This document shows positions 761-59,845 of a stretch of DNA of 64,000 bases, one piece after another. Under the pieces are notes generated by a model. That model saw only the letters and a program-made list of their open reading frames with translations. It had not been told where the DNA came from and searched no databases. The position numbers and the translations under genes were made by a program. Where the stretch lies: contig OX597821.1 in NCBI GenBank assembly GCA_951406725.2, positions 24,056,001-24,120,000 on the forward strand, given 5' to 3'. Positions within the stretch are counted from its first letter, which is position 1. Every line of letters begins with the position of its first letter. This DNA is from Octopus vulgaris (Eukaryota).

Positions 761-762
<2 letters not shown>

Positions 763-941
763 AGATAAGAAAATGGAGAAATACACCTAAATCAAATATC
801 AATTACCATATAATACTCAATCACATACTTTATTAAACCACCACATAAGAGACTGTAGGGTTAGATATAAAAAGCAGAACAACAGTATATTGGATATATG
901 TTATCCCATGGAGGGCTGCATTTACAACCCCTATCTCAATT

Positions 942-943
<2 letters not shown>
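761..943 (-). mobile_element. Internally deleted copy of the ribozyme-bearing element at 38620-39156
   Basis: 761-882 is close to the reverse complement of ~39035-39156, and 883-943 of 38620-38680. Flanked by (TA)n. Confidence 0.85.
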
Positions 944-1000
<57 letters not shown>

Positions 1001-17000: not shown

Positions 17001-17292
17001 TACATTGACCCTCCATAAATCCAAAATTTTATTTTGGTACTTATGGGAGCAAATACCTTCGAAGACTCATACTGTCGTTCAATGCACGAAATGAGGAGTA
17101 GATGGACAGACGACAACTGACAAAGAGCCGTTCTTTATGTTACTTGTCCTGTTTCCCATTTGTTTCTCTCGTTGTCTGCATATTGAACTCATTTGTTTTC
17201 GTATTTCATGTTGTTTACTGTTGGTGACGTCCTGTACCCATATATGCATATGTATAGATGTGTACGTGTGTGTGTATATGCATAGACATATT

Positions 17293-18339: not shown

Positions 18340-18341
<2 letters not shown>
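17293..18341. mobile_element. Non-autonomous DNA transposon with ~200-bp TIRs (GGATC.. / ..GATCCC)
   Basis: 17293-17525 is close to the reverse complement of 18140-18341; the left arm has a ~31-bp internal tandem duplication. Superfamily not determined. Confidence 0.85.
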
Positions 18342-18375
<34 letters not shown>

Positions 18376-23648: not shown

Positions 23649-23660
23649 CTACCCCTACCT
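23649..23660 (-). promoter_or_regulatory. Polypurine tract
   Basis: AGGTAGGGGTAG immediately before the 3' LTR. Confidence 0.8.
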
Positions 23661-25578
23661 AAGCTTTTGTCGACCCGACAAAGCATAACAAAACTCGCAC
23701 CTCCGAGCAGCAGACTCTCCAGGGGCTGGGGGTCCCCTTGGGTGGTTTCTCCTCCGGGGGTCTCACCTCCCACGGCCACCACTTCAGCACCAGCCACAGG
23801 TTGGCACCTTCCCTCTGCGGCTTGGGTAACACCTCCGCCAACGCCGCCAGGCTTCCTACTAGCCGCCCACAATAGGCGCACCGTCCGAGGAAGTTCCTCA
23901 AATCCCTCACACAAGAAGGGTCCGGCCAATCCTTCACAGTGGCCACCTTCCTCAGGGCTCTATAGCCCACGTAGCATCTTGCTGTACCATCTCCATTCCG
24001 CGCAATCATCGCCGACGACCAGGGACCATTCCGCTTTTCCACTGTTCCCCGTCGCCGATATCTCCTCTTGCGCTGCTGTACTGAGACCTTCCTCCGGCCT
24101 CGCTGCTTCCTCAAGCGACAACCGCCCTGGTCGACGAAACGTTCTGCCAGGTCCGTGCGACCAGCATCCAACAACCCTCGCGACCAACGTCCTGCGCTCT
24201 TCACCAACGGTTGCTTCTTCCGCAACTGCATCAGCGGACCACGATCTCTGACTGCATCACTGTATTGGCAGAACTGGCCCTGCCGCTGGTCCACCGTCCG
24301 GCGCAGTTCCACGATTTGCCCTCTGCAAATCGCCTGCGCAGCCTTCAATAACTCGGCCGACCCAACCAGCGCTCTGTCAGCCTCTGCCTCCACCAGGGTC
24401 CAGCCGACCCTCAATTGAGCTCCTATTCCGCACTGCATGTCGGGCTCCACCGGCCCCACGCAACCATCAAATACAGAGCTCCCCCAAGTGCCAACAAAGC
24501 ACCAGCGACTCCTTGCGGACCGCCTCCTCAACTGCATCCGTGGGCCACCAACTCCTTCAACTGCGTTGCCGTATCGGCAGAACTGGCCCCACCACTGGTT
24601 CGCCATCTGGCACGATTCCTCGATTTGCCTTCTGCAAATCGCCTGTGCCACTTCCAAAAGATCGGCCGACCCAGCCAGCGCTCCACCAGCTTCTGCTTCC
24701 ACTAGGGTCCACCCGACCCTCAATCGAGCTTTCACTAGGCACTGCCTGTCGGGCTCCACCGGCCCCAAGCAACCATCAACCACAAAGCTCACCCAACGCT
24801 GAAGCAGTCTTCCTGGTCTCGGTGGACCCACCACCGTTCGCAGCCGTCTCGCCTCGTCAACGGGCCTGGTCCTTTTCCTCACCAGCTTCCGTACCGCAGG
24901 CCTCACAACACACACGCTCGGCCGCCAGTCCATCCACGCCTGTGGACTCTCCACAGTGGGAACCATACTGTCCCTCTGGGCCCCAAGAGACAGGAGTCCA
25001 GACACCAAAGGACTCGCACACGGCACAACACCTGCCGCGACCATCACACACAGAGCCGGAACCTCGGATTCAGCGACATCCGCCCCAGACCTCGCCAGCT
25101 CTTCGTCCTGAGCTCCGAGAGACAGGGGTCGAGATGCCAAGGGCTCCAGACACGGAACAACAGCATCAGCCATAACACCTTCCACAGGCCTTTTGGTTAC
25201 TTCAACCTCTACGGGTTCCAAATCACAAGATTTCTTGGGTACAGCGTCACAAATTTCGGCAACCAGCCCAGGTTCCGCAAACACAACCGGTCCAGCATCA
25301 CAGATTTCGGCAACACTTCCTTCACTATCTGTTTCCCTCGATGCTTCGTTCGACGGGCAATCTCTGCCCACAGGACCGTCGCTAACCTCGGTCCAACACC
25401 GATCCTTCAAAGCTGACCCATCCGCAACCTCAAGCTCCCGCTGATCTGCCCACAGGCCCCGTCGCCTCTTGTCCATTCTTTCCACGAACGCGTCCGTCTG
25501 CGCCATCTGGCCCCTTAACATCTCCACAATCAGAGCAAGCGAAATCTCGTCTCCGGTCTGACAACCAGACAAATCCAT
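23659..25578 (-). CDS. Chimeric gag-like / RT-remnant protein (639 aa from ATG 25578), no catalytic domains
   Basis: Coiled-coil-like N-terminus and duplicated blocks. GPWSSAMIARNGDGTARCYVGYRALRKV (RT N-terminal) is fused directly to ATVKDWPDPSCVRDLRNFLGRCAY (post-RT). Confidence 0.7.
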   Translation of the reverse strand: MDLSGCQTGDEISLALIVEMLRGQMAQTDAFVERMDKRRRGLWADQRELEVADGSALKDRCWTEVSDGPVGRDCPSNEASRETDSEGSVAEICDAGPVVFAEPGLVAEICDAVPKKSCDLEPVEVEVTKRPVEGVMADAVVPCLEPLASRPLSLGAQDEELARSGADVAESEVPALCVMVAAGVVPCASPLVSGLLSLGAQRDSMVPTVESPQAWMDWRPSVCVVRPAVRKLVRKRTRPVDEARRLRTVVGPPRPGRLLQRWVSFVVDGCLGPVEPDRQCLVKARLRVGWTLVEAEAGGALAGSADLLEVAQAICRRQIEESCQMANQWWGQFCRYGNAVEGVGGPRMQLRRRSARSRWCFVGTWGSSVFDGCVGPVEPDMQCGIGAQLRVGWTLVEAEADRALVGSAELLKAAQAICRGQIVELRRTVDQRQGQFCQYSDAVRDRGPLMQLRKKQPLVKSAGRWSRGLLDAGRTDLAERFVDQGGCRLRKQRGRRKVSVQQRKRRYRRRGTVEKRNGPWSSAMIARNGDGTARCYVGYRALRKVATVKDWPDPSCVRDLRNFLGRCAYCGRLVGSLAALAEVLPKPQREGANLWLVLKWWPWEVRPPEEKPPKGTPSPWRVCCSEVRVLLCFVGSTKA

Positions 25579-25616
25579 AGCGAAAAAGAACCGATCGAAA
25601 CGCAGCAATCAGGACA

Positions 25617-27008: not shown

Positions 27009-27068
27009 GTGAGAGTGGGCAAATCAAAGAAAAGGGCATTCAGCACATTTAGTGGGAGTTACATGTAA

Positions 27069-27237
27069 TATTTAAAACAGTTTGATTGGGTACCGTGCTA
27101 CTTCAAGTTCGGCAGGCTCTAAACAAGAGCCCAATACATTCACGCTTCTTGAATGCTGAAGCCTAATGGAGTCACGTTCACGTTAGGGGCCCGTGAAACT
27201 TGAGTTAGCACGGAACCCAACCTAACTGTTTTAAATA
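27069..27237. repeat. Foldback element: ~40-bp terminal stem with three internal hairpins
   Basis: tatttaaaacagtt..gggtaccgtgcta..tcaagtt pairs with aacttga..tagcacggaaccc..aactgttttaaata. Confidence 0.7.
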
Positions 27238-27240
27238 ATA

Positions 27241-28505
27241 TATCAGATCATCCCATAAGTTCTGTCCGAATTTTGAATAAAGAAGACAAGTAATCAAATG
27301 TTATATTTAATTTTAATTTAATCATCAATGTACTTTCCCCGATTATCTATGACTTCCTTCCATCTATTTACAAGCTTTTTAATCCCATCACTTTTGGTTT
27401 CAAAGTAAAGAACTCTGAAATGTTAGTTTCGACCTCCTCCTGGCTTGCGAAAGTTATGTCCCCCAAGTGATTCTGTAAGCTGGGGAACAAATGGTAGTCT
27501 GAAGGAGCAAGGTTGGGAGAATAAGGTGGATGAGGAAATTTTCCCAACCAAGCTCTTCGATCTTGTGATGTGATCTTTGTGGGATCGCGCATTGTCCTGA
27601 TGAAACATCACTCCTTTTCAATTCACTGAAGCAGGTCATTTTTCTTCAAAGCTTGGTTCAAACGCTGTAATTGCTGACAGTTGACTTGAGCATTGATTGT
27701 TGCATTAGGTGGTAACAATTCAAAGTGAATTACTCCTTTGCAATCCCACCAGATAGAGAAAAGAACTTTTTTCCCATGAAGTTCCCTTCTCTGTTGTGGT
27801 TGAGCCTTTTCCCTTTTACCAAGCCACTGTTTATGACGTTTGACATTTCGATAGAAGATTAATTTTTCGTCACTAGTTACTAGTCTATCCAAAAAGAGTG
27901 AAATGAGTTCGCGAGAATGGAGAGAAGAGCAGATGTCAACTCGGGATTTGCTGTTGCTTTTGGACAATTCATGAGGCACCCATTTTCCAAGTTTAGGAAC
28001 CTTTCCAAGTTGTTGAAGATGATGAACAGTTGTATGGTTTGAACTAAGCTTTATTGCCAATTCTTCAACCGATAATGCAGGATTTTCTTCAAGTAATGCC
28101 TCAAGGAGCTTATCATCAAACTCGACTGGACGTCCTGTTCGATCTTCATCTTCAAGGCTGAAATCTCCACTTCTGAATTTTGCAAACCATCTTCTGCAAG
28201 TTCTTTCATTCAAGCATTCTTTCCCATAAACTGAGTGTATGTTTCGAGTCGCTTCGGCTGCAGAGTTTCCTTTTTTGTACTCATAAAGTATTATGTGCCT
28301 CAAATGCTTTTTGTATACTTCTATGTTAGAAATGGTTTTAATTAAAGAAATTTTAATTCTATTAGTCTGTAAAATGATATTTAATTAGTTTAAGTGTACA
28401 GAAATGCATAAAAATAATTTTTAATTCCATTAGACATTCTAAAATACTATTAAATTTCATTCAATTCTAAAAAAGGTAAAATCGGACAGCATATGTGTGA
28501 TGTTT
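27241..28505 (-). mobile_element. Mariner (DD34D) element with disrupted transposase (~27330-28325)
   Basis: HTH, WVPHEL, VTSDEK, FHQDNARSH, HPPYSPNLAPSDYHLF. Start codon appears mutated to ATA; frameshifts; TIR core tgtccga.tttt / aaaatcggaca. Confidence 0.92.
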
Positions 28506-29265: not shown

Positions 29266-29546
29266 ATGTACAGAGTTATCAACCTCGGTGGTTTACTTTG
29301 TTGTTTTTGTACATTGGGTGCGTCTTTGCAATTGACGATACACACACCGGTTATGTTTCACTTCAGTTATTAACATTAGTCAACCAGTTAAGCTAATTAA
29401 CCCATTAATTAACAGGTTGTTTAGTCAATCAATCGATCCAATTGGTTAGTCCAGAGTCCTTCCGTCGGCATTTGCGACTTCGTCAACGGTATGCCCACAT
29501 CTGGGCCACGTCTGTCTTCAAGTCACAAACAAGATTTATTGTTTTA

Positions 29547-30062
29547 TCTCTTTTACTCTTTTACTTGTTTCAGTCATTTGACTGCGGCCATGCTGGAGCA
29601 CCGCCTTTAGTCGAGCAAATCGACCCCGGGACTTAATCTTTGTAAGCCTAGTACTTATTCTATCGGTCTCTTTTGCCGAACCGTTAAGTGACGGGGACGT
29701 AAACACACCAGCATCGGTTGTCAAGCAATGCTAGGGGGACAAACACAGACACACAAACACACACACACATACATTTATATACATATATACGACAGGCTTC
29801 TTTCAGTTTCCGTCTACCAAATCCATTCACAAGGCATTGGTCGGCCCGGGGTTATAGCAGAAGACACTTGCCCAAGATGCTACGCAGTGGGACTGAACCC
29901 GGAACCATGTGGTTGGTTAGCAAGCTACTGTAGCAATATTGTTTTCTTCGTGGCTATCTTCACTGTTTGAGAAACTCAAACGAGATCATTCTTAATACTT
30001 ATCTCAAACAGTGAAGGAAACAATAGTGCTACACTACTTACCACACAGCCACTCCTGCGCCT
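29547..30062 (-). mobile_element. SINE family A with nested MITE
   Basis: The consensus is interrupted at 29929-30033. Confidence 0.9.
29929..30033. mobile_element. 105-bp MITE with TGT..ACA termini and 4-bp TSD (Ginger-like)
   Basis: CTAC TSD (29925-28, 30034-37); inverted arms; related fragment at ~8695-8753. Confidence 0.75.
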
Positions 30063-30480
30063 ATTGCCACGCAGTGGGACTGAACCCGGAAGAGTATATA
30101 TGTATGTTTCTATGTGCGTGTATTGATATGTGTGAGTGAGTGTGTATGCGTCGTATGCCCTTGTGTAAGTATATTTCACCTGAATTCCAGTGTTTGTGTG
30201 TGCCTGCATGTGTGAGTGTTTGTGTGATATTCAGCGTCTTTATGTAGGTCAAGTGCATGTGCATGTATATGTGATACTGTCTGTATACGTGAGTGAGTGT
30301 GTGTGAGAGAGGGAGAGAGACTGTATGTGTGAGAAAGAGGGAGAGAGACAGAGAATGTGTGTGTACGTGAGTGAGTGTATGTGTGCCTACCCATGCATAA
30401 GGTTACGTTTTTTCTTCCTGTGTTAAGCACGTCACTGTTCAGCGACATTTCCTAATCCTGGAACGTACTGCTGCAGTGTA

Positions 30481-30870
30481 ACTCTCTTACTCTCTTTTAC
30501 TCTTTTACTTGTTTCAGTCATTTGACTGCGGCCATGCTGGAGCACCGCCTTTAATCGAGCAACTCGACCTCGGGACTTAATTCTTTTGTAAGCCCAGTAC
30601 TTATTCTATCGGTCTCTTTTGCCGAAACGCTAAGTAACGGGGACATAAACACACCAGCATCGGTTGTCAAGCAATGCTAGGGGGACAAACACAGACACAC
30701 AAACACACACATGCATATATATATTTCCGTCTAACAAATCCACTCACAAGACTTTGGTCGGCCCGAGGCTATAGTTGAAGACACTTGCCCAAGGTGCCAC
30801 GCAGTGGGACTAAACCCGGAACCATGTGGTTGGTAAACAAGCTACTTACCACACAGCCACTCTTGCGCCT
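30481..30870 (-). mobile_element. SINE family A
   Basis: Multicopy match. Confidence 0.9.
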
Positions 30871-31104
30871 ATGTAAGGTTAGCAATCTTATATTGACTTC
30901 TTTCATAGAATCGTTGATAACTTATCGACCTCCCCCAGCCACCGCCATGGTGTAAATTACTAAAATAAAATGAAAATGCATAAATAACATAAATTTTCTT
31001 GATTTAAAAACAATAACTCCTTCACTCTTTTGTGTCATTACTGTTTTTCTATTGGAAATACTTAAAGATATTTAAATGAAAATACCTAACGAATTTGATG
31101 AAAC

Positions 31105-33654
31105 TGTGGGATGACGTCAGCAGCTAGGGAGCTGACCGGAACTTGGGGCTGACTGAAAGGCCACGCCAGGGTTGAGTTTGAAGACGAGGTGGAGAGGTGG
31201 ATCGAGGAAGGGGTCCTTGTCCCTTGGGAGGATGAGGTAGCGGTCGGAGTGCTACCCCTGATGGCGGTGGTGCAGCCTACGAAGGGAAAAGTCAGACCGG
31301 TGCTGGACTTCAGGGAGCTAAACCAGCATATATCGTGTCACACGGGAGGTGAGGCGACAGACGTTTGTGGCGAGACGTTACGTGCGTGGAGACAGTCGAC
31401 CAAGGCAGCGACGATTGTCGACTTGAAATCGGCATACTTGCAGCTCCATGTGAGCGACAAACTGTGACAATATCAGCTGGTGCGGTACAAAGGCCGGACG
31501 TACTGTTTAACCAGGCTGGGTTTCGGACTGAATTCCGCCCCGAAGATCATGGCGGCAGTGCTTAAGTCCGTCCTAGGGAAAGACGGCAAGATTAGAAAGG
31601 CCACCAGCTCCTACATTGACGACATTTTGGTGGACGAAACTGTAGTGCAAGCCAACGAGGTAGTTAGACATCTGGAAAAGTTCGGACTGATTGCTAAGCC
31701 ACCGGAGTCGATTGAAGGGGGAGCCGGGCTGGGGCTGAAGCTGCGAAGAGATAGATCGGGTGAATTGGTGTTCCGGAGAGGGAATGAAATCCCAGAGCTG
31801 AGTTCCAGCGTCAGCAGGAGAGAGCTGTTCTCGGTGTGTGGGAAGTTGGTCGGTCACTACCCGATCGCTGGATGGCTGCGCATGGCGTGAAGTTACACCA
31901 AGAGACGAGCGGAGGGGGAGAGTTGGGGCGACAAGGTGGCGATGATGCAGGAAATCCTAGAGAGGACGAGAGCGGAAGACCCGGTCAGGGGGAACTTGTA
32001 CGTGCCCAAGACGGAATGCGGGACCGTCTGGTGTATAGCGATAGGGGTTGTGTTGGCAATCGAAGGCGCTGCGGTGGAGGACGCGGCCTGGCTTCGGAAA
32101 GCAGATGACTTCAACCACATCAATGTCGCCGAATTAGACGCGGTGCTGAAAGGGGCGAACTTGGCCCTGAAATGGGGGCTGCGCACGATTGAAATCCGGA
32201 CGGATTCGGCCACTGTGCTTGGCTGGGTAGGATAGGTGATCACCGGTGAAAGGAGAGTGCGGACGAAAGGTGCCGCGGAGATGTTAGTGAAGCGCCGTCT
32301 AGGAGTTCTAGGTGAATTGATCGCCGAGTTCGGACTGAAGCTGAACGTGGTTTACGTGCCTTCGGAGAAAAACAGGGCGGACGCACTGATCAGGGTGAAA
32401 AGAGCGTGGTTGGAAGAACCGGAGGAGGCCCGGAAAGGGATAGCTGCAGCGTGTCGGTTGGATGACTCTGAACTGAAGAGACTGCATGCTATGCATCACC
32501 TGGGTGTGGACAGGACCCTGTATCTGGCGTAGAAAATTGATGCTGACGTCACTAGGAGAAGCATCCGGAAAGTGGTCGGGAGCTGTGACAGGTGTCAGTC
32601 CATCGACCCTGCTCCGTGTGGGCATGAACAGGGAAGCCTTTCGGTGGAGCACAACTGGAAAAGGCTAGCTGTGGATGTGACGCACTACCGTCAGGGAATG
32701 TACTTCTCCATGGTCGACTGCGAGCCAGGCCGGCTGGCCATTTGGAGGGAGTTGAGGTCCTGTGGAAGAACTGCTGATGGACAACGGGGCGGTGTTTCGT
32801 TCGGAAGCATTGAGGGTTATGCTTGATCGGTTGAAGGTGCGTCGCTTGTTCAGAGCAGCGTATAGGCTGAGCGGTAACGGGATCGTAGAGAGGCACCATC
32901 GGACAGTCAAGGCCATAGCGGAAAGAGGGCACATTTCGCCGTTTGAAGCAGTTTTTTGGTACAACTTGTCTCCCCGATCCGGACAAGCTGAGGAATCTGT
33001 GCCGCAGAGAGCTGTATTTAAATATGAATGGAGGCACCCGAGCAAAGCGCCGGAGGGCCACGAGGAAGAGAAGGGACCCGTTTGCGTGAAAATAGGGGAG
33101 GAAGTCTGGGTTAAGCCACCAAAGGCGCGCTGTAGGTCTCAATGGAGCAGAGGAACGGTGACGGCGGTCAATTCCAGAAACAACGTCTCCGTGGACGGAA
33201 TGCCGCGACACGTCTTGGACCTCCGCAGGATTGTCGCTTCGACGGACGACGATTGTGGAGAGGAGGAGAACGAGGTGCCCAGCTTCAGAAGATCTCGACG
33301 CGCAAGGCGCCCTCCCGGTTGGATGGTGGACTACGACATGGAGTAGAGAGATTGTGATCTTTAAGATCAGGGTGGCGTGTGGGATGACGTCAGCAGCTGG
33401 GGAGCTGACCGCAACTTGGGGCTGACCGGAAGGGGCAGCCGTGACGCGCGCGCAGCGAGCGGGGCATTCTGCCTTTTCGAGTTAGGTCGTCGAGGGGTTA
33501 AGACGGGTGATCACGTTGTTAAGGTTGGGTGAAGTAGCTACTATCTCTAGCGTTCGGGTCGGGCTGTGTCGAAGAATCCATTACCGTTGAAGGGTCTCCA
33601 TCAGAGCAAAGAGAAGGTAGGTGCTTTTATTTAGAATCTCTCGCACACACCACA
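31105..33654 (+). mobile_element. Gypsy LTR retrotransposon with a large 5' deletion
   Basis: GAAAC 5-bp TSD; 5' LTR stub 31105-~31160; full 3' LTR 33378-33654; purine-rich tract before it. Confidence 0.93.
31165..33346 (+). pseudogene. Gypsy pol remnant (RT - RNase H - integrase) with several stops and a frameshift
   Basis: VRPVLDFRELN, DLKSAYLQ, RLGFGLNSAP, YIDD; HINVAELDA, TDSA, NRADAL; HH..C..C; DNG, GNGIVERHHRTVK. Confidence 0.92.
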
Positions 33655-35591: not shown

Positions 35592-35629
35592 GCCCATATA
35601 TATATACTTAGTTGTGATCTGAACATAAC

Positions 35630-38312
35630 CGCTTCTCACACACAGACGAAATAGTTAAAGCAAACATGGTACATGGTCCATGTGGGCGTGGATTCAACAT
35701 AAACACACCATGCTTGAAGGACAGCATATGTTCAAAAAGATTTCTAAGAAGGTTCCTACAAGAAACTCAGACAGGTGCTGATGGGTATCCATCATACAGA
35801 CGCAAAAAAACAGAAGACGGAGGTTTCACAGCAACTATCGGACAGCACGATATTGATAATAGATCGATTGTTCCATACTACCCACTCCTGTCAAAGACTT
35901 TCAATGCCCACATAAACATTGAGTTTTGCAACTCCGTTAAATCCATCAAGTACGTTTGCAAATATGTAAACAAGGGTTCTGACGCTGCATTGTTTGGACT
36001 TCAACCAGAATACTGCCAGGATGAGGTGACGCTTTCCAATTCACCAACGACACCCCGCCATTCAACAGCTTGCAGTGCACCTGGAAAATGGTCAAAGAGT
36101 GTACTTCACCGATGCTAATGCTTCTCTGTTGGCAGAGGAACCAAGGGATAGCACACTCAATGCATTCTTCAAGCTTTGTCAAGTGGATCCATTCGCTCAA
36201 ACCTTGCTGTATCTACATCCACAGATTCCATCGTACTACACTTGGAATGAAAAAAAATGGGCCCCACGGAAAGCAGGTCAAAATGTTCATGGATACCCTG
36301 GCATTAAGTTTCACACTTGCCTTGGGCGAGTATACACAGTGCATCCCACTCAACAAGAGTGCTTCTACATTCGTCTACTACTGCATGAGGCCAGAGGGCC
36401 AACGTCTTTCCAGGCCCTAAAAACCGATCATGGACATGTCTGCACAACATACAGAGAAGCCTGCTATCGACAAGGTCTGTTAGAAGATGGTGCACAATGG
36501 GATGCAACTTTAGGAGAGGCTGCTTTATCACAATCACCTAAAAGTCTCAGGGCACTATTTGCAGTATTACTACAGGCATGCGAACTGTGTGATCCGGCCA
36601 CTCTATGGCTCAAATATAGAGACAACCTGGCTGAAGACTTTCAGCGCCAAGCTCAACTGCTCTATCCTGACATGGAGGGAATCAGCAATGAAATCTATAA
36701 CAAAACACTCATTGACATTGAAGACAGAATTGCTAAACTGGGTGGAAATGAATTGTCGACGTATGGCCCGCCACAAGCATTCAGGTCAGGGTCAAATAGC
36801 CTTCCCACTGCTGTCATTCGTGAAACAACCTACGACACTCAATCGCTTTCAAATACATTGTTGAAAATGAGCCTAAATTACTTCCGGACCAACTGCAGGC
36901 CTACAGAACAATTCTTAACAGTGTACACCAACGCGAGGGACAAATCTTCTTCCTCGATGCTCCTGGAGGGACAGGAAAAACATTTATTACAAAGCTTCTC
37001 CTTGCAGAAGTTAGGTAGCATCAGGACATTGCAGTAGCTGTAGCCTCCTCTGGCATTGCAGCTACTTTGTTACCCAGTGGCAGGACAGCACACTCAACTT
37101 TTAAACTCCCTCTCAATTTAGCAGCATCCGAAATGCCTTCATGCAACATCAACAAAAGCTCAGATCAGGGACAAGTACTTAAAATGTGTCATCTAATTGT
37201 CTGGGATGAGTGCACTATGGCTCACAAGGAAGCTTTGGAAGCATTAGATAGAGCCCTGAAAGACATCTGAGACTGTCAGGCTCCAATGGGAGGTGTAACG
37301 CTTTTGTTGTCAGGTGATTTCAGGCAAACTCTTGTCATTCCGAAAGGCACTAGAGCAGATGAAGTCCAAGCATGCCTAAAGTCCTCTACCCTGTTGAATC
37401 ATGTTACAATCCTCAGTCTCACCACTAACATGAGGGCTCAGCTACACGGCGACAAAATGTCCACAAAGTTTGCACAGGACATTTTGAAGGCAAGTGAAGG
37501 CAAGATGCCTCTCGATGCTGCAGGACAAATGGAAGTGTGGTCATTTTCCTCTGTTGTTAATTCTGTAGATGACCTCAAAATCAAAGTCTTTCCCAACTTC
37601 ACGCAAAACTACCAAAATCACAATTGGCAGTGTGAAAGAGCTCCAAAAAACGTCGCTGTTAACAAAATTAATCAACAGCTAATGCATTCTCTTCCCGGCA
37701 CTATACACACTTACAAGTCTGTTGATACAATTCCAGATATAAATGAAGTTGTGAACTATCCTCCTGAATTTCTCAATTCACTGGAGCCTCCTGGACTACC
37801 TCCACACATATTAGCACTTAAAGTTGGAACTCCTGTAATGCTACTCCGCAATCTGGAACCACCAAGAGTTTGCAATGGAACACGACTGGTGATAAAGAAA
37901 ATGATGTCACATGTTATCGAGGCGATCATTCTTTCTCGACGTGGAAAAGGTGATGACGTCTTTATTCCAAGAATTCCTCTTACTCCATCAGGAACAGAAA
38001 TTCCATTTACATTCAAAAGACTGCAATTCCCGCTTCGTGTCAGCTTTGCCATGTCCATTAACAAATCTCAGGGTCAAACCCTCTCTGTAGCTGGTCTTCT
38101 GTTGGAACAGGCCTGCTTCTCGCATAGGCAACTGTATGTTGGCTGCTCAAGAGTAGGAACCAAAAGAAACCTTTTTGTATATACTCCACAAGGAAAAACA
38201 AGGAACATTGTTTACAACGAGGTGTTATAATCTCAACAGCCAGGAGGTATATACATGATCCCCTTTTTTTAACAAACTTCATGTACTTTCATGTATTTAT
38301 ATTAATATACAA

Positions 38313-38349
<37 letters not shown>

Positions 38350-38438
38350 TGTGTGTGTGTATCCATATATATATATATATATAACAGAAAAGTCTAATTC
38401 TTCAATTGAATGTAACCGAGGAACGCCGGTCTCTGCTA

Positions 38439-38439
<1 letters not shown>
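35630..38439 (+). mobile_element. Helitron, 5'-truncated (Rep C-terminus + PIF1 helicase pseudogene to 38230)
   Basis: MVHGPCG, HINIEFC, KYVCKYVNKG, HLENGQRVYF, DAPGGTGKT, ASSGIAA, GRTAHS, DECTM, GDFRQ, LCNGT-like, MSINKSQGQT. 3' accgaggaacgccggt hairpin followed by CTAG|T at 38436-38440. Confidence 0.92.
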
Positions 38440-38514
<75 letters not shown>

Positions 38515-38619
38515 ATATATATACATATATATATATGTATATATATGTATATATATGTATATATATTTATATATGTATATATATGTATATATATGTATCT
38601 TTATATATGTATATATATA

Positions 38620-39156
38620 CAAATTGAGATAGGGGTTGTAAATACAACCCTCCATGGGATAACATATATCCAATATACTGCTAGTGAAGTACCCTATAGA
38701 TGTATATGAGACATTTGCAAGGGTATCGTAGGGCCTCCTCGGAGATATACATATACATATGAGTGCACTCATATGTATATTTATATCTCCGAGGAGGCCT
38801 TGTGATGTTTTTGTGAGTGTCTCATTTGTATCTGTGTATTGACCTACCATAAAAGGCTAATATTGGTAAAATGAGACATACTTATCTACATGGCCGAAAC
38901 AGCTGTAAGATGTAATCTATACTTATATTTATATTTACTTATATTTATATTCTCTTTTATATATATTCTATTTATTATACAACATTACTCTGTTTTGTAC
39001 ACTTTTTTATGTACATTCCTTTATGTACACTGATTTGTTCTGCTTTTTATATTTAACCCTACAGTCTCTTATGTGGTGGTTTAATAAAGTATGTGATTGA
39101 GTATTATCTGGTAATTGATATTTGATTTAGATGTATTTCTCCATTTTCTTATCTTG
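38620..39156 (+). mobile_element. (TA)n-inserted non-coding element with hammerhead and long hairpin (Penelope pLTR/retrozyme-like)
   Basis: Ends confirmed by the deleted copy at 761-943. Confidence 0.8.
38782..38914 (+). ncRNA. Type I hammerhead with 92-nt loop II; core variant CCGAGGA
   Basis: tatatct-CCGAGGA-ggcc-(92 nt)-ggcc-GAAAC-AGCT-GTA-agatgta; 7-bp stem I. Confidence 0.7.
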
Positions 39157-39211
<55 letters not shown>

Positions 39212-39290
39212 ATATATGTATATATATGTATATATATGTGTATATATAAGTATCTATATGTATATATATATATATGTATATATATGTGTA

Positions 39291-39346
<56 letters not shown>

Positions 39347-39348
<2 letters not shown>

Positions 39349-39708
39349 AATAAGAAAATGGAGGAACAGATTCATTTCAATCATCAACTTACAGATATTA
39401 CCAATTCATATTATTATTAACTACATAAATAGGAACATCCAAGTCCAACAAAATAAAGCAATATACATCAATAAGCAAGATAATACCATAAAAATAATAC
39501 ACATAAAATGGATCTTACAGCTGTTTCAGCCTGTAGATAAAGGTATCTCATTCTGCCTATATTAGTCAGATGTATTGAGGTAATATGCAGTTAAAAATGA
39601 GTTACTTATATATATATATATCTGAAGGCCTCATCAGAGATTTTATTGTACAATTATAAAGATATAAAAAGCAAATATAAATATGAAACAAAATACACAG
39701 ACACAAGA

Positions 39709-39709
<1 letters not shown>
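39347..39709 (-). mobile_element. Related (TA)n-flanked element, opposite orientation
   Basis: Shares the ctccattttcttat.tg 3' end and the ribozyme with 38620-39156. Confidence 0.7.
39512..39641 (-). ncRNA. Type I hammerhead (intact core) with 93-nt loop II
   Basis: Minus strand: atct-CTGATGA-ggcct-(93 nt)-aggct-GAAAC-AGCT-GTA-agat. Confidence 0.78.
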
Positions 39710-39770
<61 letters not shown>

Positions 39771-40580: not shown

Positions 40581-41324
40581 AATGCCTGACCAGCAAGGGG
40601 AAGTGGCTGACCTCCCCTGTTTGAAGGTTATAATGGACACAGGTTTGTGTGTCACATAGCTAGCTAGAGGTGATTGCCTCTTGGAGCTAATCAACAGCAG
40701 CATTCGTCCTATATTTCTGGACTGCCATATTAGCTTGGCAATAACTATTAATATATGTATATATGTGCATATATATATATAGAGAGAGAGAGGGCGAGGA
40801 GAGGGCAAGAGAGAGAGAGGGAGAGGTTTGCTGATACAAACATGAAAAATATAACTCAAAACATGAGTATATATTTTTATTAATACTTAACAGAAGCAAC
40901 AGAGTGAGACAATGGCTGAGAGTTTCATGTATTACCACTTATCAAATTAGTTATGTATATATATATATTTATAGAAGGTTGATTGTTATGGTCAGTCAAA
41001 GAAGGACCATTAGTTTCGCACCTATAAAATGCTTGGCTGTTTGGGTGACTCATAACATTTAAATGACTGGTGGCACCTAACCTCTGCAATTGGAGTATAT
41101 ATATATATGTCATCAAATACCAACCAATAACCTCCCTTTCATCACCACTAAAATGACCCAATTTTAATTGTTCTTTTAATCATTAATTTAATAGCCTTCG
41201 TAAATACTAAACAAGTTTTAGTGTGAAAGGTTGGTAGACTTCTAAGTCATCAACTCTAGTGGGAAAATATTAACACTATCATTTCTATAACTTTTATTCT
41301 CAATAACCTTTAAATTCAGATACT

Positions 41325-41720
41325 CTCTATACTTTTTTACTTGTTTCAGTCATTTGACTGCGGCCATGCTGGAGCACTGCCTTTAGTCGAGCAAATCGAC
41401 CCCGGGATTTATTCTTTGTAAGCCCAGTACTTATTCTATCGGTCTCTTTTGCCAAACCGCTAAGTGATGGGGACGTAAACACACCAGCATCAGTTGTCAA
41501 GCAATGCCAGGGGGACAAACACAGACACACAAACATACACACACATACATATATATATACATATATACGACAGGCTTCTTTCAGTTTCCGTCTACCAAAT
41601 CCACTCACAAGGCATTGATCGGCCCGGGGCTATAGCAGAAGACACTTGCCCAAGATGTCACGCAGTGGGACTGAACCCAGAACCATGTGGTTGGTTAGCA
41701 AGCGACTTACCACACAGCCA
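41325..41720 (-). mobile_element. SINE family A
   Basis: Multicopy match. Confidence 0.9.
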
Positions 41721-41729: not shown

Positions 41730-42922
41730 TCAAACAAAACTTTATTAATCAAAATAAACACCATCAGAATCAACACACTTTTGCCGACGCAAAACAAGTT
41801 TATTTATGCCAGTAGTGTAAAAATCCTGTGTTCTGATGGAATGAAGTCATTGAAGGTGTGTTTGGCATCGTCTTGGTTTTTGAAGCATTTCTCATGCGGG
41901 AAGTTGTCGAGATGCTTGAAAAAGTGGTAGTCAATAGGCGAGACGTCTGGTGAGTATGGTGGATGAGGCAGAGTTTCGTAGCCCAATTCGTTCAACTTCT
42001 GCAGGGTCAGTTGTGCAATGTGCGGCCAAGCATTGCCATGGAAAAGAATTGGTCCTTTTCTATTGACCAATGCTGGCTGTTGTTGTCGGAGTTTCTTATG
42101 CCTTTCATCCATTTACTGACAGAACTTCTCCACCATAATGGTTTTGCCTGGATCCAAGAAGCTGTGATGGATGAGACTGGCCACAGTCCACCAAACAGTC
42201 ACCATGACCCTCTTTTGGAGCAACTTTGGCTTCGGGAAGTGCCGTAGAGCTTTGTCGGCGTCCAACCACTGAGCTGAGCATTGCCAGTTGTCGTAAAGAA
42301 TCCACTTTTCATCGCTAGTCACAATCTGGTTGAGAAATGGGTTGTTCTTGTTGTGTAAAAGAAGGGAAGATGACACTTCAAAACAGTGTTTTTTTGGTTG
42401 TTGTTCAATTTGTGCAGCACCCATTTCTCAAATATTTTTGCTTTTCCAATCTCTTTCAAGTGGTTGAAAATTTTCGTATTTGTTATGTCTAATTCAGAAG
42501 CAAGCTTGCAAACAGTTGTGCATGGATTGGCTTCAACTAAGACTCTTAGTTGATCGTTGTCAACATCCGATGACTGACCACTACACTTATTATCTTCAAG
42601 GCTCTCGTCACCTGTACAAAATTTCTTGAACCACCATTAGTGGTTTCTGGGCCAAATGCATCGTTGATATCACAAACTGTTTCAGCAACTTTTCGGCCTA
42701 GCTTGAACTGGAATAAGAAAACTGTGCGAATTTGCTTTTTGTCCATGTTGTATTCAACGTTCTGGAAAAAATGGCCTAATTATTCAAAACGATTAGATAG
42801 AGTGAAAAACAGGCTTTAAAATGATATATAAAGTCAAATTAATTTAACGGAAATTAATTTGAAAATATGTCATTTAAAACCAAAATTTAAAATTCCGCAA
42901 GTACTTTCTTGACATTCTAATA
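41730..42922 (-). mobile_element. Mariner (DD34D) element, degenerate transposase from ATG 42746
   Basis: MDKKQIRTVFLFQFKLGRK, IVTSDEKWILYDN, VMVTVWW, FHGNAWPH, HPPYSPDVSPIDYHFF; TIR-like end at ~42890-42920. Confidence 0.9.
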
Positions 42923-47242: not shown

Positions 47243-47336
47243 TTAAAGATGTATTAGATATGTGAGCATTGACTTATTTGTCTATCTGTCAGTCTTCCTC
47301 CTGCCTACCTAAATATCTGACCATAATCTATCAGTT

Positions 47337-47740
47337 TACTCTTTTACTTGTTTCAGTCATTTGACTGCGGCCATACTGGAGCACCACCTTTAGTCGAGCA
47401 AATCGACCCCGGGACTTATTCTTTGTAAGCCCAGTACTTATTCTATCGGTCTCTTTTGCCGAACTGCTAAGTGACGGGGACATAAGCACACCAGCATCGG
47501 TTGTCAAGCAATGCTTAGGGGACAAACACACACACACAAACAAACACACAAACATATATATATATACATACATACACATATACGACAGGCTTCGTTCAGT
47601 TTCCGTCTACCAAATCCACTCACAAGGCATTGGTCGGCCCAGGGCTATAGCAGAAGACACTTGCCCAAGATGCCACGCAGTGGGACTGAACCCGGAACCA
47701 TGTGGTTGGTTAGCAAGCTACTTACCACACAGCCACTCCT
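47337..47740 (-). mobile_element. SINE family A
   Basis: Multicopy match. Confidence 0.9.
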
Positions 47741-47934
47741 GTTTGGTAGACTATTTATCAATCAATCTAGCCAGCTAGCCATGTCTGTCTGTCTGATGAA
47801 AAATCGGCTGGTCTGTCTGTCTGTCTGCATGCACTTAAATACTATCTGCAGCGCATCATTGCACTGTAGTGTACTGTTTTTGAACCATTGCTCTAAACAT
47901 GAAATAATAATAATAATTAATGATAATAATAATA

Positions 47935-50194: not shown

Positions 50195-52405
50195 GAGGCT
50201 GGAGATGCCATTATGAAAGACTGCTGAATGTGGAGAAGGAATGGGAGGAGGAGAGTCTGCCAAATTTTGACCCAACTAAGGGACCAGATATCTGAATTGA
50301 CAGTACCCTGGTAGATAAAGCAATTAGGGATATGAAGACAGGGAAAGCCCCTGGCCCATTGGGAATCACCGCTGAGATGTGGTGAGGTTTATGGTCTAGT
50401 CACCTGTATTGTAAATCAGGTGGTTCATGAAGGAGTCATGCACAATGACTGTTATAGCAGCACCATAGTCAACTGCTACAAAAGTAAAGGTGATGCCTTA
50501 GATAGAAATAATTACAGAGGTATCAAATTGTTGGAACAGGTGATGAAAGTTGTGGAGAGAGTCATAACCCAGCTAATCAAGGAGAGAGTCTAGAGGATAT
50601 GCAGTTTGGCTTTGTGCCTGGTAGAAGCACCATTGATGCTATATTTCTGGTAAGGCAACTGCAGGAGAAATACCTAACCAAAGATAAACCTCTGTACTTG
50701 GCTTTTGTTGACTTGGAGAAAGCTTTTGACAGAGTCCTCCGATCTGTTATCTGGTGGTCAATGCAGAAACTAGGGATAAACGAGTGGTTGGTGAGGGCTG
50801 CACAAGTCTTGTACAGAGACACTACCAGTAAAGTGAGGGTGGGCAACGAGTACAGTGAAGAATTCAGGGTACAAATAGGGGTTCACCAAGGATTGGTGCT
50901 CAGCCCCTTCTTGTTCATCATAGTCCTCCAAGCAATAACAAAGGAATTCAAGACAGGCTGTTCCTGGGAGCTCCTCTATGCCGTTGACCTTGCTCTTATA
51001 GCTGAGTCATTACCTGAGCTAGAGAAGAAGTTCCAGGTATAGAAACAAGGTCTAGAATCAAAAAGCCTTAGGTCATAATAAGTAGAAAGGTAAACAAATC
51101 ACAAATCCCCTCAGGTAGATGGTCTTGCTCAATCTGTACAAAAGGTGTAGGTAGAAACTTCATAAGATGCACCCAATGTAAGCTTTGGACACACAAAAGG
51201 TGCAGCAACATTAAAGGAAGGTTAATAGACAAACTAACTTTTGCCTGTGGAAGGTACACAAGCATAATAAATGCTGAACATGTGTGGAAAATAGACTCCG
51301 TCAACTGCCAGGAGGGCAAGCTAGAGGTAGTAGATAGCTTCAGGTATCTAGACAGCCAGGTTAGTAGTGGCGGTGGTTGTTCTGAGAGTGTAGTTGTGAG
51401 AATAAGATTAGTTTGGGCAAAGTTCCAAGAGCTCATACCCCTGATGGCAACAAAGGGCCTCTCTCTCAGGGCAAAAGGCAGATTGTATGATGCCCATGTG
51501 CAAACAGCTATGCTCTGAAACATGGCCTATAATAGCTGAGGACATGTGTAGGCTCGAAAGAAATGAAGCCAGTATGCTTTGCTGGATGTACAATGTCTGT
51601 GCATGTTCGACAGAGTGTAAGCATCTTGAGAGAAAAGTTAGGCATAACAGGAATCAGATGTGGTGTGCAAGAGAGACAGCTGTGCTGGTATGGTCATGTG
51701 ATGCATATGGATGAGGACAGCTGTGTAAAGAGGTGCTGATCTCAAACTGTAGAGGGCCCCTGAGGTAGAGGTAGACCCAGGAAGACATGGGACTAGGTGG
51801 CTAAGTATGACCTTCGAACTTTGAACCTCACGGAGACAATGACTAGTGACCAAGACCTTTGGCAATGTGCTCTGCTTAAGAGGACCAATCAAGCCGAGTG
51901 CACCTGTGCTGGTGGCACATATAAAAAAATCAAACTTTGAATGTTGGGCTCCATGAAGGCAAAGTGGCTGAGTTCCTTTTGAGTATTGGACCTGATGGAG
52001 GCAAAATGGCTAAGTTCCTTTAGAGTGTTGGGCCTTATGGAAGCGAGGTGGCTGAGTTCCTTTCAAGTGGGCCTCACGGAGGTGAGGTGGCTGAGGTCCT
52101 TTCGTGTATTGGGTCTCATGGAGGCAATGACCGAGACTGGCATTTAGTTGTGTTTGAAAAGAAGACCCATCAAGCCGATCAAAATTGTAGTCATAGCAGA
52201 TACCGGTGTTATGCAAATGGCACCCATGCTAGTGGCACGTAAAAGCACCTATTGCACTCTCGGAGTGTTGGCATTAGGAAGGGCATCTAAAGTAGAAAAC
52301 CATGCCAAATCAAACTGGATCCTGGTGCACCCTTCCAGCGTACCAGCCCAGTCAAACTGTCCAACCCATGCCAACATGGACAACAGACGTTAAATGATGA
52401 TGATG
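50195..52405 (+). mobile_element. RTE-clade LINE, 5'-truncated and degenerate
   Basis: QFGFVPGRSTIDAIF, FVDLEKAFDRV, GVHQG, LYAVD, FRYL, RGRPRKTW. ~40-bp tandem units in the 3' UTR (~51940-52135); (TGA)n tail. Confidence 0.9.
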
Positions 52406-54104: not shown

Positions 54105-55148
54105 AGTGTTTCACTGGTACTTAATTTATCAACCCGGAAAGGATGAAAAATAAAGTTGGCCTTAGTGGAATTTGAATTCAGCATGTAAAGCCAGTAGAAA
54201 TGCCACTAAATATTTTGTCCGGCACACTAACAATTTTGTGAGCTTATTGTATACAATACTCCGGTGCACATAATTTGTCAGAAAAGGATAAAAATAGAAC
54301 AGAAAGCAGCCATAAATCAAGTAAACAAAAGGTTGCAATGATATTCAGACATTGAATAAAACTGTAAAGCAAACAGTTAAAGATCCATAGAAAGGAACTG
54401 GTTCATAGGTACATCAGGAATAATGTTAGCAAATTTCAGAAAACATGCAATTTTTGAAGGTTGTAGTATCCTGACAGCTAACAACCGATATCAATAGTTT
54501 GTTACATACTGTAACAATTCTGATTGTGAAAAACTGTTTTCCAAAAGTTATGGGTATTCTTCTGCATTTTGATTATAATGTCCCAGACTATTAGAGATAC
54601 TGAATAAAAAAGGTGGCTAAAGTTGTTTTTTGAAAGATGGTGCATAACCTTGTGTGCTTCTACAAAGTTGGCTACTACACTGGAACTTTAGTGTATCAAT
54701 ATCCTGAGAAGCAATATATTCAAGATAGAGTAAGTGACTAATGGAAGTAGTTTGTCTGATTGCAAGTCATTTGGATGGCTTCCAGCAGATCAAGATTCTG
54801 GACAAGATTGGGGTTCCAGATGGGAGATGCAAACTGTAAGTATGGAAAGCTGTAAACAAAATATTTTCCCAAACTTTGATTATCAATGTCAAATGGTCAT
54901 TGTTAAATCTAAGTATACTGCAAACCATTATGAAGCAGTGAATTGCCTAAGATAAAAGAATCTCAGACAAGATGCCTTGTTTTAGCTCTTTGTATTATGA
55001 TTTCAAATCTTGTAATGGCCTACAAGGCAGGGAATTGGCAGATTTGCTTTACAGGAAGACTTAGGGCATTCATTCTGGTTATCTGCACACTGAGTTCAAA
55101 TCCCACTGAGGTTGCCTTTTGTCCTTTCAAAGTAAAAAAAAATAAAAT

Positions 55149-55268
55149 AGGTGCAGGAGTGGCTGTGTGGTAAGTAGCTTGCTAACCAACCACATGGTTC
55201 CGGGTTCAGTCCCACTGCGTGGCATCTTGTGAGTGGATTTGATAGACGGAAACTGAAAGAAGCCTGTC

Positions 55269-55316
<48 letters not shown>

Positions 55317-55525
55317 TGTGTGTCTGTGTTTGTCCCCCTAGCATTGCTTGACAACCGATGCTGGTGTGTTTACGTCCCCGTCACTTAGCGGTTCGGCCAA
55401 AGAGACCGATAGAATAAGTACTGGGTTTACAAAGAATAAGTCCCGGGGTTGATTTGTTCGACTAAAGGCGGTGCTCCAGCATGGCTGCTGTCAAATGACT
55501 GAAACAAGTAAAAGAATAAAGAGAG
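55149..55525 (+). mobile_element. SINE family A (small internal deletion)
   Basis: Multicopy match. Confidence 0.9.
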
Positions 55526-56055
55526 TAAAATAAAAAGTGCCAAACCAGAGCAGCAAATTGCCAGAACTGTAAAAACGTATATGCCTCGTGGTATTTGATC
55601 CATCTCTTTGTGTGCTGAGTTCAAATACCCCCATGACCCATTTAGGTGGTTGACTTAATTCTTAGTGCAGTTTAATGCCACTATCTGACAGCTATAAAAC
55701 CTTTAGTGGAATCCACTTTGCTACAAACATATGAGCCAGGGTCCCAGTTTGAGAATACTTTCATCCCTTACTATGTGCCATCAGTCTTGAAGTCCCTGTA
55801 AAGACAGATCATGGGCTTTGACTTCCTCCACCTGACAAAAAGAAGTGTAAAAGATAGTAACAAGAACAATTCTACAATCACCCTGATCAGGTAGGCTGTG
55901 TATAAATTCACTAGTCTATATTTATAGTATTCTCTGCTTTCCTGTATTTGCAGGTTTGAATCACTACCTATCAATTTAACTTTCTACATCTTGTTAAGTG
56001 GGGTAAGATAAAACGTGAAACAAGAGAACGTAATAACAGTTTTCAAGCCAACTAA

Positions 56056-58158: not shown

Positions 58159-58789
58159 TGTACATATTCTGCACAATGTTTTAAGCATTCTCATCTTTGT
58201 TTGTGAAGCCATTCATAAATTATTATTATTACTATCATTAGAATCATCATCATCCTTATCATCATCTTTATTTTCATCATAAATCATAATCTTTCTTCTT
58301 CTTCTTCTTCTTCTTCTTCTTCACCATCATCTTTATCATGGCAGTAAGCTGGCAAAATTGTTAGCACACCGGGCACAATGCTTTGTGGTCTTTTGTTTGT
58401 CTTTATGTTCTGAGTTCAAATTCTGATAAGGTTGACTTTGCCTTTCATTGTTTCGGGGTTGATAAAATAAGTACCAGTTGAGTACTGGGGGTCGATGCAA
58501 TCGACTTACTCCTTCCCTGAAATTGCTGACTTTGTGCCAAAATTTGAAATCATGATTATTATTGTTATTATTATCATTATTATTATTAGGGTGGGCAAAA
58601 TGCTTAGTGGCATGTCATCCATCATTCTGAGTTCAAATTCTGCCAAGGTTGACTTTGCCTTTCATCCTTTTGGGACTCAATAAAATTAAGTACCAGTGAA
58701 ACACTAGGGTCAATGTAATCAACTAGTCCCCTACCCCAAAATTTCAGGCCTTGTGCCTTTAATAGAAAAGAATATTATTATTATTAGAC

Positions 58790-59345
58790 TATAACAAGAG
58801 CATGATGTGATTGTAATAGATTATTTATTGGTTTGAATGATATTTCAACAGCTCACCCTTTTTCAAGTTCAAAATGTAAAATAAAGAAATTCAAAATTAT
58901 GAACGAGGCGATCCTGTGTCCACACTCTGACAGAATGACATCATCAGTCTTCAATTTTGCAACTGGCAAAAGGATGAAGAAAGAAAAAAGAATAAAGAAT
59001 AGAAAAAAGAAGGAAAGAATATCTAGTGAAACAGTTTTGTGTAAATGAAATTCACCTGCCGTTTTAATTATTCCTCCAGGTGAATTTCATCACATTTACA
59101 CAAAACTGTTCAACTAAATATTCTTTTTTTTTTCGTTTTTCTTTCCTTTACCTTTTGCCAGTTGCAAAACTGAAGACTGATTATGTCATCCTGTCAAAGT
59201 GGAAATGCAGGATCTCCTTGTTCATAATTTTGAATTTTTGAATTTCTTCATTTTACATTTTGGACTTGAAAGACAGGCGAGCTGTTGAAATATTGTTCAA
59301 ACCAAAATAACAATCTATTACAATTGCATTGTGCTCTTCTTATTG
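58790..59345. mobile_element. Foldback MITE (~270-bp diverged inverted arms)
   Basis: Symmetry centre ~59068 (atgaaattcacctg / caggtgaatttcat). Confidence 0.85.
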
Positions 59346-59845
59346 TTTATTTAACTTTATGAAGAGTTACATCAATCTTTATAAAATATTATTATTATTA
59401 TTATTGTGGTATTTCCCCTGTCACTATGTTCTGAGTTCAAATTCTGCTGAGGTCACACTTTGCCTTTCAGGGTCGATTAAATAAGTACCAATTATGCACT
59501 GGGGTCGATGTAATCGACTTAAACTCTTCTCCCTTCCAGTAGAAAGGATTATCATAATTATTATTTCCATACTTACAAGGCTTTGGTCGGCCCGAGGCTA
59601 TAGTAGAAGACACTTGCCCAAGATGCCACACAGTGGGACTGAACCCAGAACCATGTGGTTGGTAAACAAGCTACTTACCACACAGCCACTCCTGCACCTT
59701 ATTTGCAATATTTTTCACCCATCAGAGTAACTAAGGACTTATGAAAAGAAAGCTTTATATTCTTCAGAACATATGAAACAAGGGCCAACTAAAAATCTGA
59801 AAACAAGAATAGACATTTAGGACAAACGTATGAAAGTGCTTTGGA

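Follow-up and report, generated by a model that had tools for sequence, protein, structure and literature searches.

The DNA analysed here, a 64,000-nt stretch of the Octopus vulgaris genome (the window), carries two related hammerhead ribozyme motifs that point towards each other, and this arrangement raises the question of what kind of element brought them here and whether their very long stem II regions are part of the ribozyme fold. Copy A is a type I hammerhead motif on the forward strand (38785..38911) composed of stem I (ATCT at 38785-38788 with AGAT at 38908-38911), the core CCGAGGA (38789-38795), stem II (GGCC at 38796-38799 with GGCC at 38892-38895) and the 3′ half GAAAC-AGCT-GTA (38896-38907). 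Its core differs from CUGAUGA by U4C and U7G, and cleavage is predicted 3′ of position 38907, following GUA. Copy B, also of type I, lies on the reverse strand (39512..39641), with stem I formed by 39641-39638 and 39515-39512, a predicted cleavage site 3′ of position 39516 and, as a first-pass annotation of this DNA had noted, a perfect CUGAUGA core (CTGATGA, 39637-39631). The two motifs are 72% identical over 144 alignment columns, which bears out the relatedness proposed in that annotation. The blocks it described as common to both (atct, GGCC, GAAAC-AGCT-GTA and agat) are indeed found in the motifs, except that stem II of B pairs GGCC with GGCT, giving one G·U pair in place of G10.1-C11.1. 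The self-complementary helix III segment ACAGCUGU (38899..38906, forward strand) is identical in B.

A relaxed type I descriptor, which permits a loop II of up to 200 nt and was applied to both strands of the 64-kb window as the first-pass annotation had proposed, returns A and B as its sole matches. The same descriptor yields a mean of 0.07 matches (maximum 2) in 60 dinucleotide shuffles, and none of the 60 produces a match with a palindromic helix III. Likewise, the 20-nt 3′ half occurs twice in the window at up to three mismatches, compared to 0.02 expected occurrences. Standard short-loop descriptors miss both copies, as had been anticipated: the Rfam hammerhead models give no matches at gathering thresholds, and the published min-HHR descriptor limits loop 2 to at most 10 nt (PMC4209133, supplement Fig. 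S7). Beyond this genome, no exact copy of the 20-nt 3′ core was found in viral contigs. Its occurrences at six metagenome-contig loci were rejected as chance, since a CYGANGA core lies within 200 nt upstream in none of the six. In two of the metagenome contigs (L003:1630-1870 and L004:2840-3080), the sequence surrounding the 20-nt match is identical and a 27-nt direct repeat lies upstream; neither has a hammerhead core.

Copy B conforms to the CUGANGA/GAAA/UH core, whereas A departs from it at U4 (U4C), and all ten core-helix pairs form in each copy, one as G·U. Stem I reaches a length of 8 bp in A, and in B it continues beyond a 4-nt bulge. As a monomer, helix III consists of 2 bp capped by an AGCU tetraloop; as a dimer, it would become an 8-bp duplex of ACAGCUGU with a predicted energy of −11.1 kcal/mol. 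Both copies thus carry the short palindromic helix III that is a feature of dimer-type hammerheads associated with Penelope-like elements (PLEs). Hammerheads of this kind are described as cleaving mainly as dimers, and slowly in vitro (PMC4209133; review PMC6765202).

The two motifs belong to a repeat family that ends abruptly in (TA)n DNA. The T-rich 3′ part of A (38912..39156, forward strand) extends to the fixed 3′ end of the family beside a (TA)n tract, as judged by homology to the 3′ end of B, by a further copy (D, below) and by contigs, some of which run from the A 3′ end into TA. The 3′ part of B (39347..39511, reverse strand) aligns to the same shared end, and the 3′ ends of A and B are homologous (p 0.0005), with 77% identity over the last 81 nt. 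Between them lies a (TA)n/(TATC)n tract (39157..39346), the putative insertion target, which separates the two 3′ ends in the facing arrangement that the first-pass annotation had reported. Upstream of its core, B retains a T-rich 5′ remnant (39642..39712, reverse strand) that halts at another (TA)n tract 70 nt upstream of the core. Because B does not have the second family end described below and stops at this tract, it looks like a 5′-truncated copy. A match between this remnant and T-rich sequence downstream of A (p 0.0035) was considered as evidence for a tandem unit and dropped, both sequences being of low complexity. There is no tandem repeat of the unit within the window, and the unit is non-coding, with no credible open reading frame.

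On its other side, the unit containing A has a second fixed end, called E (38620..38694, reverse strand), which abuts TA and, from contig depth, joints and copy D, appears to be the 3′ end or ‘tail’ of an inverted arm. E has the highest summed contig depth of the aligned stretch, which began at 38630. The family sequence diverges from the locus beyond 38694, and no continuation of E past this position was found in the window. Likeness between E and the 3′ ends of A and B is weak (p 0.02-0.05). Two small hairpins can be drawn within E (38631-38652 and the 38657-38671 region), and its summed contig depth is about twice that of the A 3′ end.

Two further copies were absent from the first-pass annotation. 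One of these, C (38695..38765, reverse strand), is an inverted partial copy of A that comprises the stem I 5′ strand, the CCGAGGA core, GGCC and the first 37 nt of the insert. The other, D (761..945, reverse strand), joins E directly to the last ~120 nt of A, carries neither ribozyme nor fold-back, is flanked by (TA)n on both sides and matches the A 3′ end with 97.6% identity over 126 nt. D has the appearance of a deleted sister whose two fixed ends were joined through a short microhomology. A, B and D all finish with the same 3′ motif in (TA)n, and few copies have known 5′ ends.

Abundance of the family is evident from public sequencing runs. Seventeen of 24 runs, under four organism labels, hold 32-52% of the sampled words, whereas runs X18-X24 hold next to none. 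Contigs from four of the 24 runs were aligned to 38630-39150 (521 bases, copy A only); two of the runs, X11 and X13, are tentatively classed as RNA and may be DNA. In run X1, 2018 contigs align to the 521 bases, and summed depth reaches 1e5-1e6 over E, the ribozyme 3′ half and the A 3′ end, compared with depths of 6-99 for single listed contigs. Summed contig depth is not copy number, but it marks this as a high-copy family. Three X1 contigs, one for each joint and with depths of 27-30, connect E to the 3′ part of A (38661 to 39001, 38661 to 39048 and 38678 to 39027). Places in A that lack contig cover (38918-38953, in three runs) reflect a low-complexity filter.

The inserts between the two strands of stem II are 92 nt in A (38800..38891, forward strand) and 95 nt in B (39626-39532, reverse strand), the latter including a (TA)8 expansion, so the earlier estimate of about 92 nt for both is exact for A only. 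Homology had been noticed in the 3′ part of the inserts; it is real, but it spans the whole insert, where the alignment of A with B is better than those of all 2000 shuffles (2000/2000), and continues for ~240 nt beyond the ribozyme. A predicted rod-like extension of stem II is a more fitting description of the insert than an open loop. Specifically, stem II plus the insert of A has a predicted energy of −30.6 kcal/mol (z −3.4), which 2 of 500 shuffles equal in stability, and setting six places to the family letter moves the score to z −4.5, with 0 of 500 shuffles as stable. The corresponding value for B is only −1.75 (31 of 500 shuffles), and its (TA)8 expansion falls within the large internal loop of the rod.

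Stem II pairing across the insert, whose loss had been named in advance as grounds for rejecting the ribozyme proposal, is retained at all four pairs in both copies, one as G·U. A consensus drawn from the two sequences keeps 18 insert pairs in both copies, with two changed on both sides and five on one, and pairing is 100% at the true register compared with 30-40% in slid-partner controls. The proposed search for covariation in loop II therefore finds two double-sided changes, but two sequences are too few to establish covariation, and the score, computed on a consensus structure derived from those same sequences, is attained by 131 of 500 column shuffles. Two of the family variants disrupt predicted pairs (38865 G>A, at 6-39% of depth, and 38879 T>C, at 2-43%). 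No place among 30 in 38882-38911 shows another letter at 5% or more, compared with 19 of 123 in 38840-38881 plus 39034-39114 (Fisher p 0.026), but the variant-free segment adjoins 38912-38966, where contigs are cut, and cutting can hide differences. Judging by engineered hammerheads, the core can remain undisturbed when stem II is lengthened. As a matter of speculation, the role of loop 2 could be taken by the mismatch or internal loop that follows pair 4 or 5 of stem II. The conserved ATG of the insert (AATGAGA) was considered as the start of a pLTR-overlapping reading frame like that of PAc, and was rejected on reading by eye: A and B are one base out of frame with each other, and both frames stop within ~30 codons.

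A different explanation for the insert is that it represents a retained spliceosomal intron, extending in B from GTAACT at 39605 to CTACAG at 39531 (75 nt, with a branch-like CTGACTAAT), whose removal would shorten loop II and switch the ribozyme. The donor, branch and acceptor words do occur in order in B, as they do in 82 of 5000 insert shuffles examined post hoc, and PLEs are described as retaining introns, including a D. virilis intron that ends at hammerhead helix I (PMC4209133). However, these words are found in B only and are not kept across copies: A has no YAG acceptor, no contig variant at 5% or more restores one, and the donor-like words of A and B fall in non-homologous columns. 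Furthermore, the conserved words coincide with paired strands of the rod, splicing of B would remove one stem II pair, and insert-skipping joints number zero in the four runs aligned to A. We therefore regard an intron as improbable. To the same low degree we credit a fuller version, wherein the rod would be a working module: a 75-nt retained intron of the B subfamily, with its own hairpin closing stem II, would upon splicing leave a short-looped hammerhead and so gate self-cleavage of the retroelement RNA, and two-armed copies would be transcribed, ADAR-edited and written back into the inherited genome. A second splice-like pair is present in the 3′ part of A, where GTAATC directly follows stem I (38912) and a polypyrimidine stretch with CTACAG occupies 39035-39064 (forward strand); no joint between them appears in the aligned contigs.

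Structure prediction suggests that the rod-like stem II is not accompanied by an active ribozyme at this locus. For A, stem II forms with a predicted probability of 0.9 when the motif is folded alone and 0.0 when the upstream arm is included, in which case the core is predicted to be paired away with a probability of 1.0. For B, the predicted stem II probability is 0.03 even alone, and the hammerhead fold lies 7-9 kcal/mol above the free minimum. Thus, the active fold is not predicted to be favoured in its own context for either copy. Both local ribozymes are probably silent, A because its core would be locked in the fold-back and carries U4C, and B because of the G·U pair at 10.1-11.1 and its predicted misfolding. 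U4C is a known natural variant of a viroid hammerhead, described as having considerably lower activity in vitro while permitting infectivity (PMC3088659); the same core change is present in A and C, although topology and context differ. No other letter is listed at positions 38790 and 38793 in the aligned family contigs, where cover is low, so CCGAGGA may be a trait of a subfamily.

The upstream arm predicted to sequester the core of A probably holds a record of how the unit was copied. Together, C and the 5′ portion of A form a 71-bp head-to-head fold-back (38695-38836, centred at 38765/38766), with C as the left arm. On the forward strand its pairs comprise 55 Watson-Crick, 14 G·U, 0 A·C and 2 other, and the imbalance of 14 G·U to 0 A·C has a p value of 1.2e-4. 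Most other inverted matches in the window have mixed ratios, with a few leaning up to ~3-7 to 1. At six of the seven right-arm G sites, the family letter is A in 98-100% of X1 depth, and the seventh is without an entry. The seven left-arm G sites have right-arm partners with no listed variant, suggesting that the left-arm G letters derive from A too. Near-fixed G-for-A differences end exactly at the end of the hairpin, position 38836. A 5′ G precedes none of the 14 edited sites, compared with 9 of 35 unedited A nucleotides (one-sided p 0.034). ADAR enzymes avoid sites with a 5′ G neighbour.

These changes are A-to-G only, lie on one strand, are confined to the duplex and avoid a 5′ G, a combination characteristic of ADAR hyper-editing. 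Editing of the RNA, followed by its copying back into DNA, is the likely source of the 14 one-stranded A/G differences, and we infer that ADAR acted and that the copying took place in the germline. Selection for pairing alone does not readily account for the pattern, because C-to-U changes would then be kept too and none are evident. With the changes to both arms on a single strand, the two arms were parts of one RNA, and since near-fixed differences go no further than 38836, truncation of the left arm had taken place by the time of editing. The fold-back is thus a small, clean case in which an editing pattern reveals that both arms shared an RNA, that arm truncation preceded editing and that the two-armed insertion itself re-transposed. 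The E-C-A unit would then be a second-generation copy of a forward-strand transcript that already held both arms and folded into the 71-bp hairpin; ADAR would have edited (A-to-I) ~14 of 49 adenosines before the RNA was copied into genomic DNA again. In run X13, 38702-38737 is covered to a depth of 29 and no difference is listed, which hints weakly that the edited arm is not confined to this assembly; cover of this arm in X1 is very low. Copying of ADAR-edited RNA by L1 has been described in cultured cells, where 3 of 235 pseudogene insertions had changes clustered within inverted Alus (PMC11702581). As in that work, the changes here are clustered, one-way A-to-G and limited to an inverted-repeat hairpin of the template RNA. 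Unlike the L1 case as presented there, the present example comprises 14 sites in a hammerhead-bearing repeat of an assembled animal genome, and the part played by ADAR is deduced from the pattern.

The editing footprint also bears on whether the unit from E to A could be a MITE-like, non-autonomous DNA transposon that has two fixed ends, targets TA and undergoes internal deletion, its hammerhead being a passenger or relic. Copy D and the three X1 joints retain both ends without the middle, and the two ends have a short imperfect inverted likeness, as this explanation would predict. However, the A/G bias affects one strand only and does not extend beyond an RNA hairpin, a pattern that requires an RNA intermediate. 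In addition, B has the 3′ end but no E end, and the ribozyme 3′ core is the least variable part of the alignment. A DNA transposon is accordingly very improbable in our judgement, slightly more so than an intron.

We instead favour, with reasonable but far from complete confidence, an explanation in which A and B are diverged copies of a high-copy hammerhead-bearing repeat that is likely non-coding and likely copied by a Penelope-type reverse transcriptase/endonuclease, likely inserted independently into the same TA microsatellite region and carries an insert predicted to be a rod. Head-to-head inverted arms, 5′ truncation, junction palindromes, two different ends (the tail being optional), microsatellite targeting and microhomology deletions are traits of endonuclease-bearing (EN+) PLEs and their inverted pLTR structures as described in PMC3846280, PMC8557442 and PMC11167929. 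The fold-back, copy D and the three X1 joints display the same head-to-head, 5′-truncated arrangement with a junction palindrome. E, whose position in the unit is provisional, is longer (75 nt or more) than the 30-40-bp tail described for Penelope-like elements (PMC3846280, PMC8557442). A and B, moreover, are tail-to-tail, unlike the usual PLE inversion in the same sources.

If this model is correct, intact family RNA would fold as a type I hammerhead in which coaxial stacking of the long stem II does not alter the geometry of the core. The ribozyme would cut after GUA, probably best as two copies paired through the palindromic helix III. An enzyme acting in trans would then reverse-transcribe the released RNA into nicked (TA)n DNA, beginning at fixed internal sites, and insertion would yield both 5′-truncated copies, such as B, and two-armed head-to-head copies, such as E-C-A and D. 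For the PAc element, fixed internal reverse transcription start sites have been described, and hammerhead cleavage was reported as not needed for insertion in vitro (PMC11167929).

No Penelope reverse transcriptase or GIY-YIG domain was found near A or B or among 130 open frames scanned against Pfam (14 + 116 frames, chosen from 184 complex stop-free frames of at least 70 aa plus a few more), so mobilisation would be in trans; the lack of both a mobilising enzyme and a tandem unit in the window counts against our preferred explanation. Two RVT_1 matches are LINE-like, one at 18.4-21.3 kb with an AP endonuclease and one at 50.6 kb beside a PHD finger. The same lack of any PLE coding remnant, upstream of A and B or in the 130 frames, weighs against the proposal that an autonomous Penelope-like element, with its reverse transcriptase and GIY-YIG domains upstream, left A, B and C as truncated pLTR ends, which would then not belong to a separate non-coding retrozyme. 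This proposal leaves the ribozyme, the long stem II and the insertion pattern unchanged. It draws on the single, truncated state of most genomic PLE hammerheads, some of which form opposite-strand pairs 100-700 bp apart (PMC4209133), on head-to-head palindromes being typical of PLEs (PMC3846280) and on the lack of a tandem monomer in the window. We consider it unlikely, though a more serious contender than the intron or transposon explanations; the two identities, retrozyme and pLTR remnant, cannot be separated at this locus.

Whether the facing arrangement has a meaning of its own can also be addressed from the sister copies. The first-pass annotation treated A and B as a convergent pair, but this does not hold up as a meaningful unit. 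Because the copies lie on opposite strands, any one transcript holds only one of them in sense, and no cis dimer can form. Moreover, A is far closer to D (97.6%, 3′ end) than to B (72-77%), which indicates separate insertions. The convergent layout is thus probably the incidental outcome of two independent insertions, and opposite-strand hammerhead pairs 100-700 bp apart are reported in Schistosoma PLEs (PMC4209133). One could instead imagine a selected device, for example one that terminates two opposing transcripts or makes double-stranded RNA: each strand has one motif upstream of the TA tract, and in a forward-strand read-through RNA 105 of the 127 nt of A are predicted to pair with antisense B. 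Yet no gene or promoter context was found, A and B share only 72% identity with differing subfamily ties, and the core or fold of each is impaired. Given the abundance of the family, its TA targeting and the 32 perfect (TA)6+ tracts in the window, such adjacency is unremarkable, and a selected device is the least credible of the explanations weighed here.

A and B have their closest counterparts in two known groups of hammerheads. They resemble the PLE pLTR hammerheads of Cervera and de la Pena 2014 (PMC4209133) in type I topology, short helix I, U/AU-rich flanks, a small palindromic helix III suited to dimer cleavage, and occurrence as dispersed single copies and opposite-strand pairs. The 2-bp helix III with a palindromic tetraloop and the short bulged stem I are likewise as described for metazoan type I/PLE hammerheads, and the AGCU loop recurs in the D. 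willistoni PLE row (PMC4209133, Fig. S3). In contrast, stem II plus its loop spans 100-103 nt here, compared with helices II of 3-8 bp and loops of ~3-9 nt in the Fig. S3 rows, and, unlike the pLTR hammerheads described in that source, the present ones have no attached RT-EN open reading frame and A carries U4C. The animal non-LTR retrozymes (Cervera and de la Pena 2020, PMC7229834; Li, Clavereau and Pollet 2026, 10.64898/2026.07.22.740005) are likewise described as non-coding, high-copy and low in GC, with type I hammerheads that have a 2-bp helix III and tetraloop, monomeric dispersed copies and a proposed PLE derivation. They differ from the present family, which shows no tandem unit in the window and has a far longer stem II.

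Our literature search found no natural hammerhead with a ~100-nt stem II, although the supplement alignments of PMC3088659, PMC7229834, PMC8557442 and 10.64898/2026.07.22.740005 may hold long-stem cases. It also found no cephalopod hammerhead family, and ribozymes are unmentioned in the available main text of the O. vulgaris repeat paper (PMC13282606). Should the family prove to cleave, a conserved stem II of 100 nt would be tolerated by natural type I hammerheads, and whole high-copy families would escape counts based on short-loop descriptors. The rod is also a concrete candidate for recognition by a Penelope protein.

The surrounding DNA is repeat-rich animal sequence with TA and CA microsatellites, a Helitron remnant, mariner fragments and a LINE. 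Directly left of the unit is a (TA)n-rich tract (38441..38619) that follows the CTAG end (38436-38439) of the Helitron remnant, as judged by sequence and the Pif1 domains upstream. This broken Helitron (35618-38439, forward strand) contains Pif1 helicase frames and finishes with a short hairpin and the CTAG end directly before the TA tract. An open 957-aa frame with AP endonuclease and reverse transcriptase domains (18409-21282, forward strand) is possibly a young LINE, and a LINE-like reverse transcriptase fragment adjoins the PHD-finger frame at 50512-51515 (forward strand). Frame fragments with DUF7047, RVT_3 (RNase H-like) and integrase-like matches (31468-33346, forward strand) are probably from a decayed LTR element, and a 649-aa open frame in a GC-rich stretch (23659-25608, reverse strand) has no Pfam match. 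Tc1/mariner transposase fragments are found at 136-378, 4774-5022, 27623-28384 and 41807-42779. Further inverted-repeat structures lie at 17275-18360, 58785-59349, 1705-2152 and 27063-27243, none with a one-sided G·U bias; the first of these is MITE-like, with 197-bp arms that are 95% alike. Finally, a SINE-like repeat of ~400 bp is present in about ten copies on both strands that are 77-93% alike (6474-6870, 10476-10881, 12170-12589, 13965-14397, 29536-29929, 30479-30872, 41321-41720, 47335-47741, 55146-55536 and 59893-60313).
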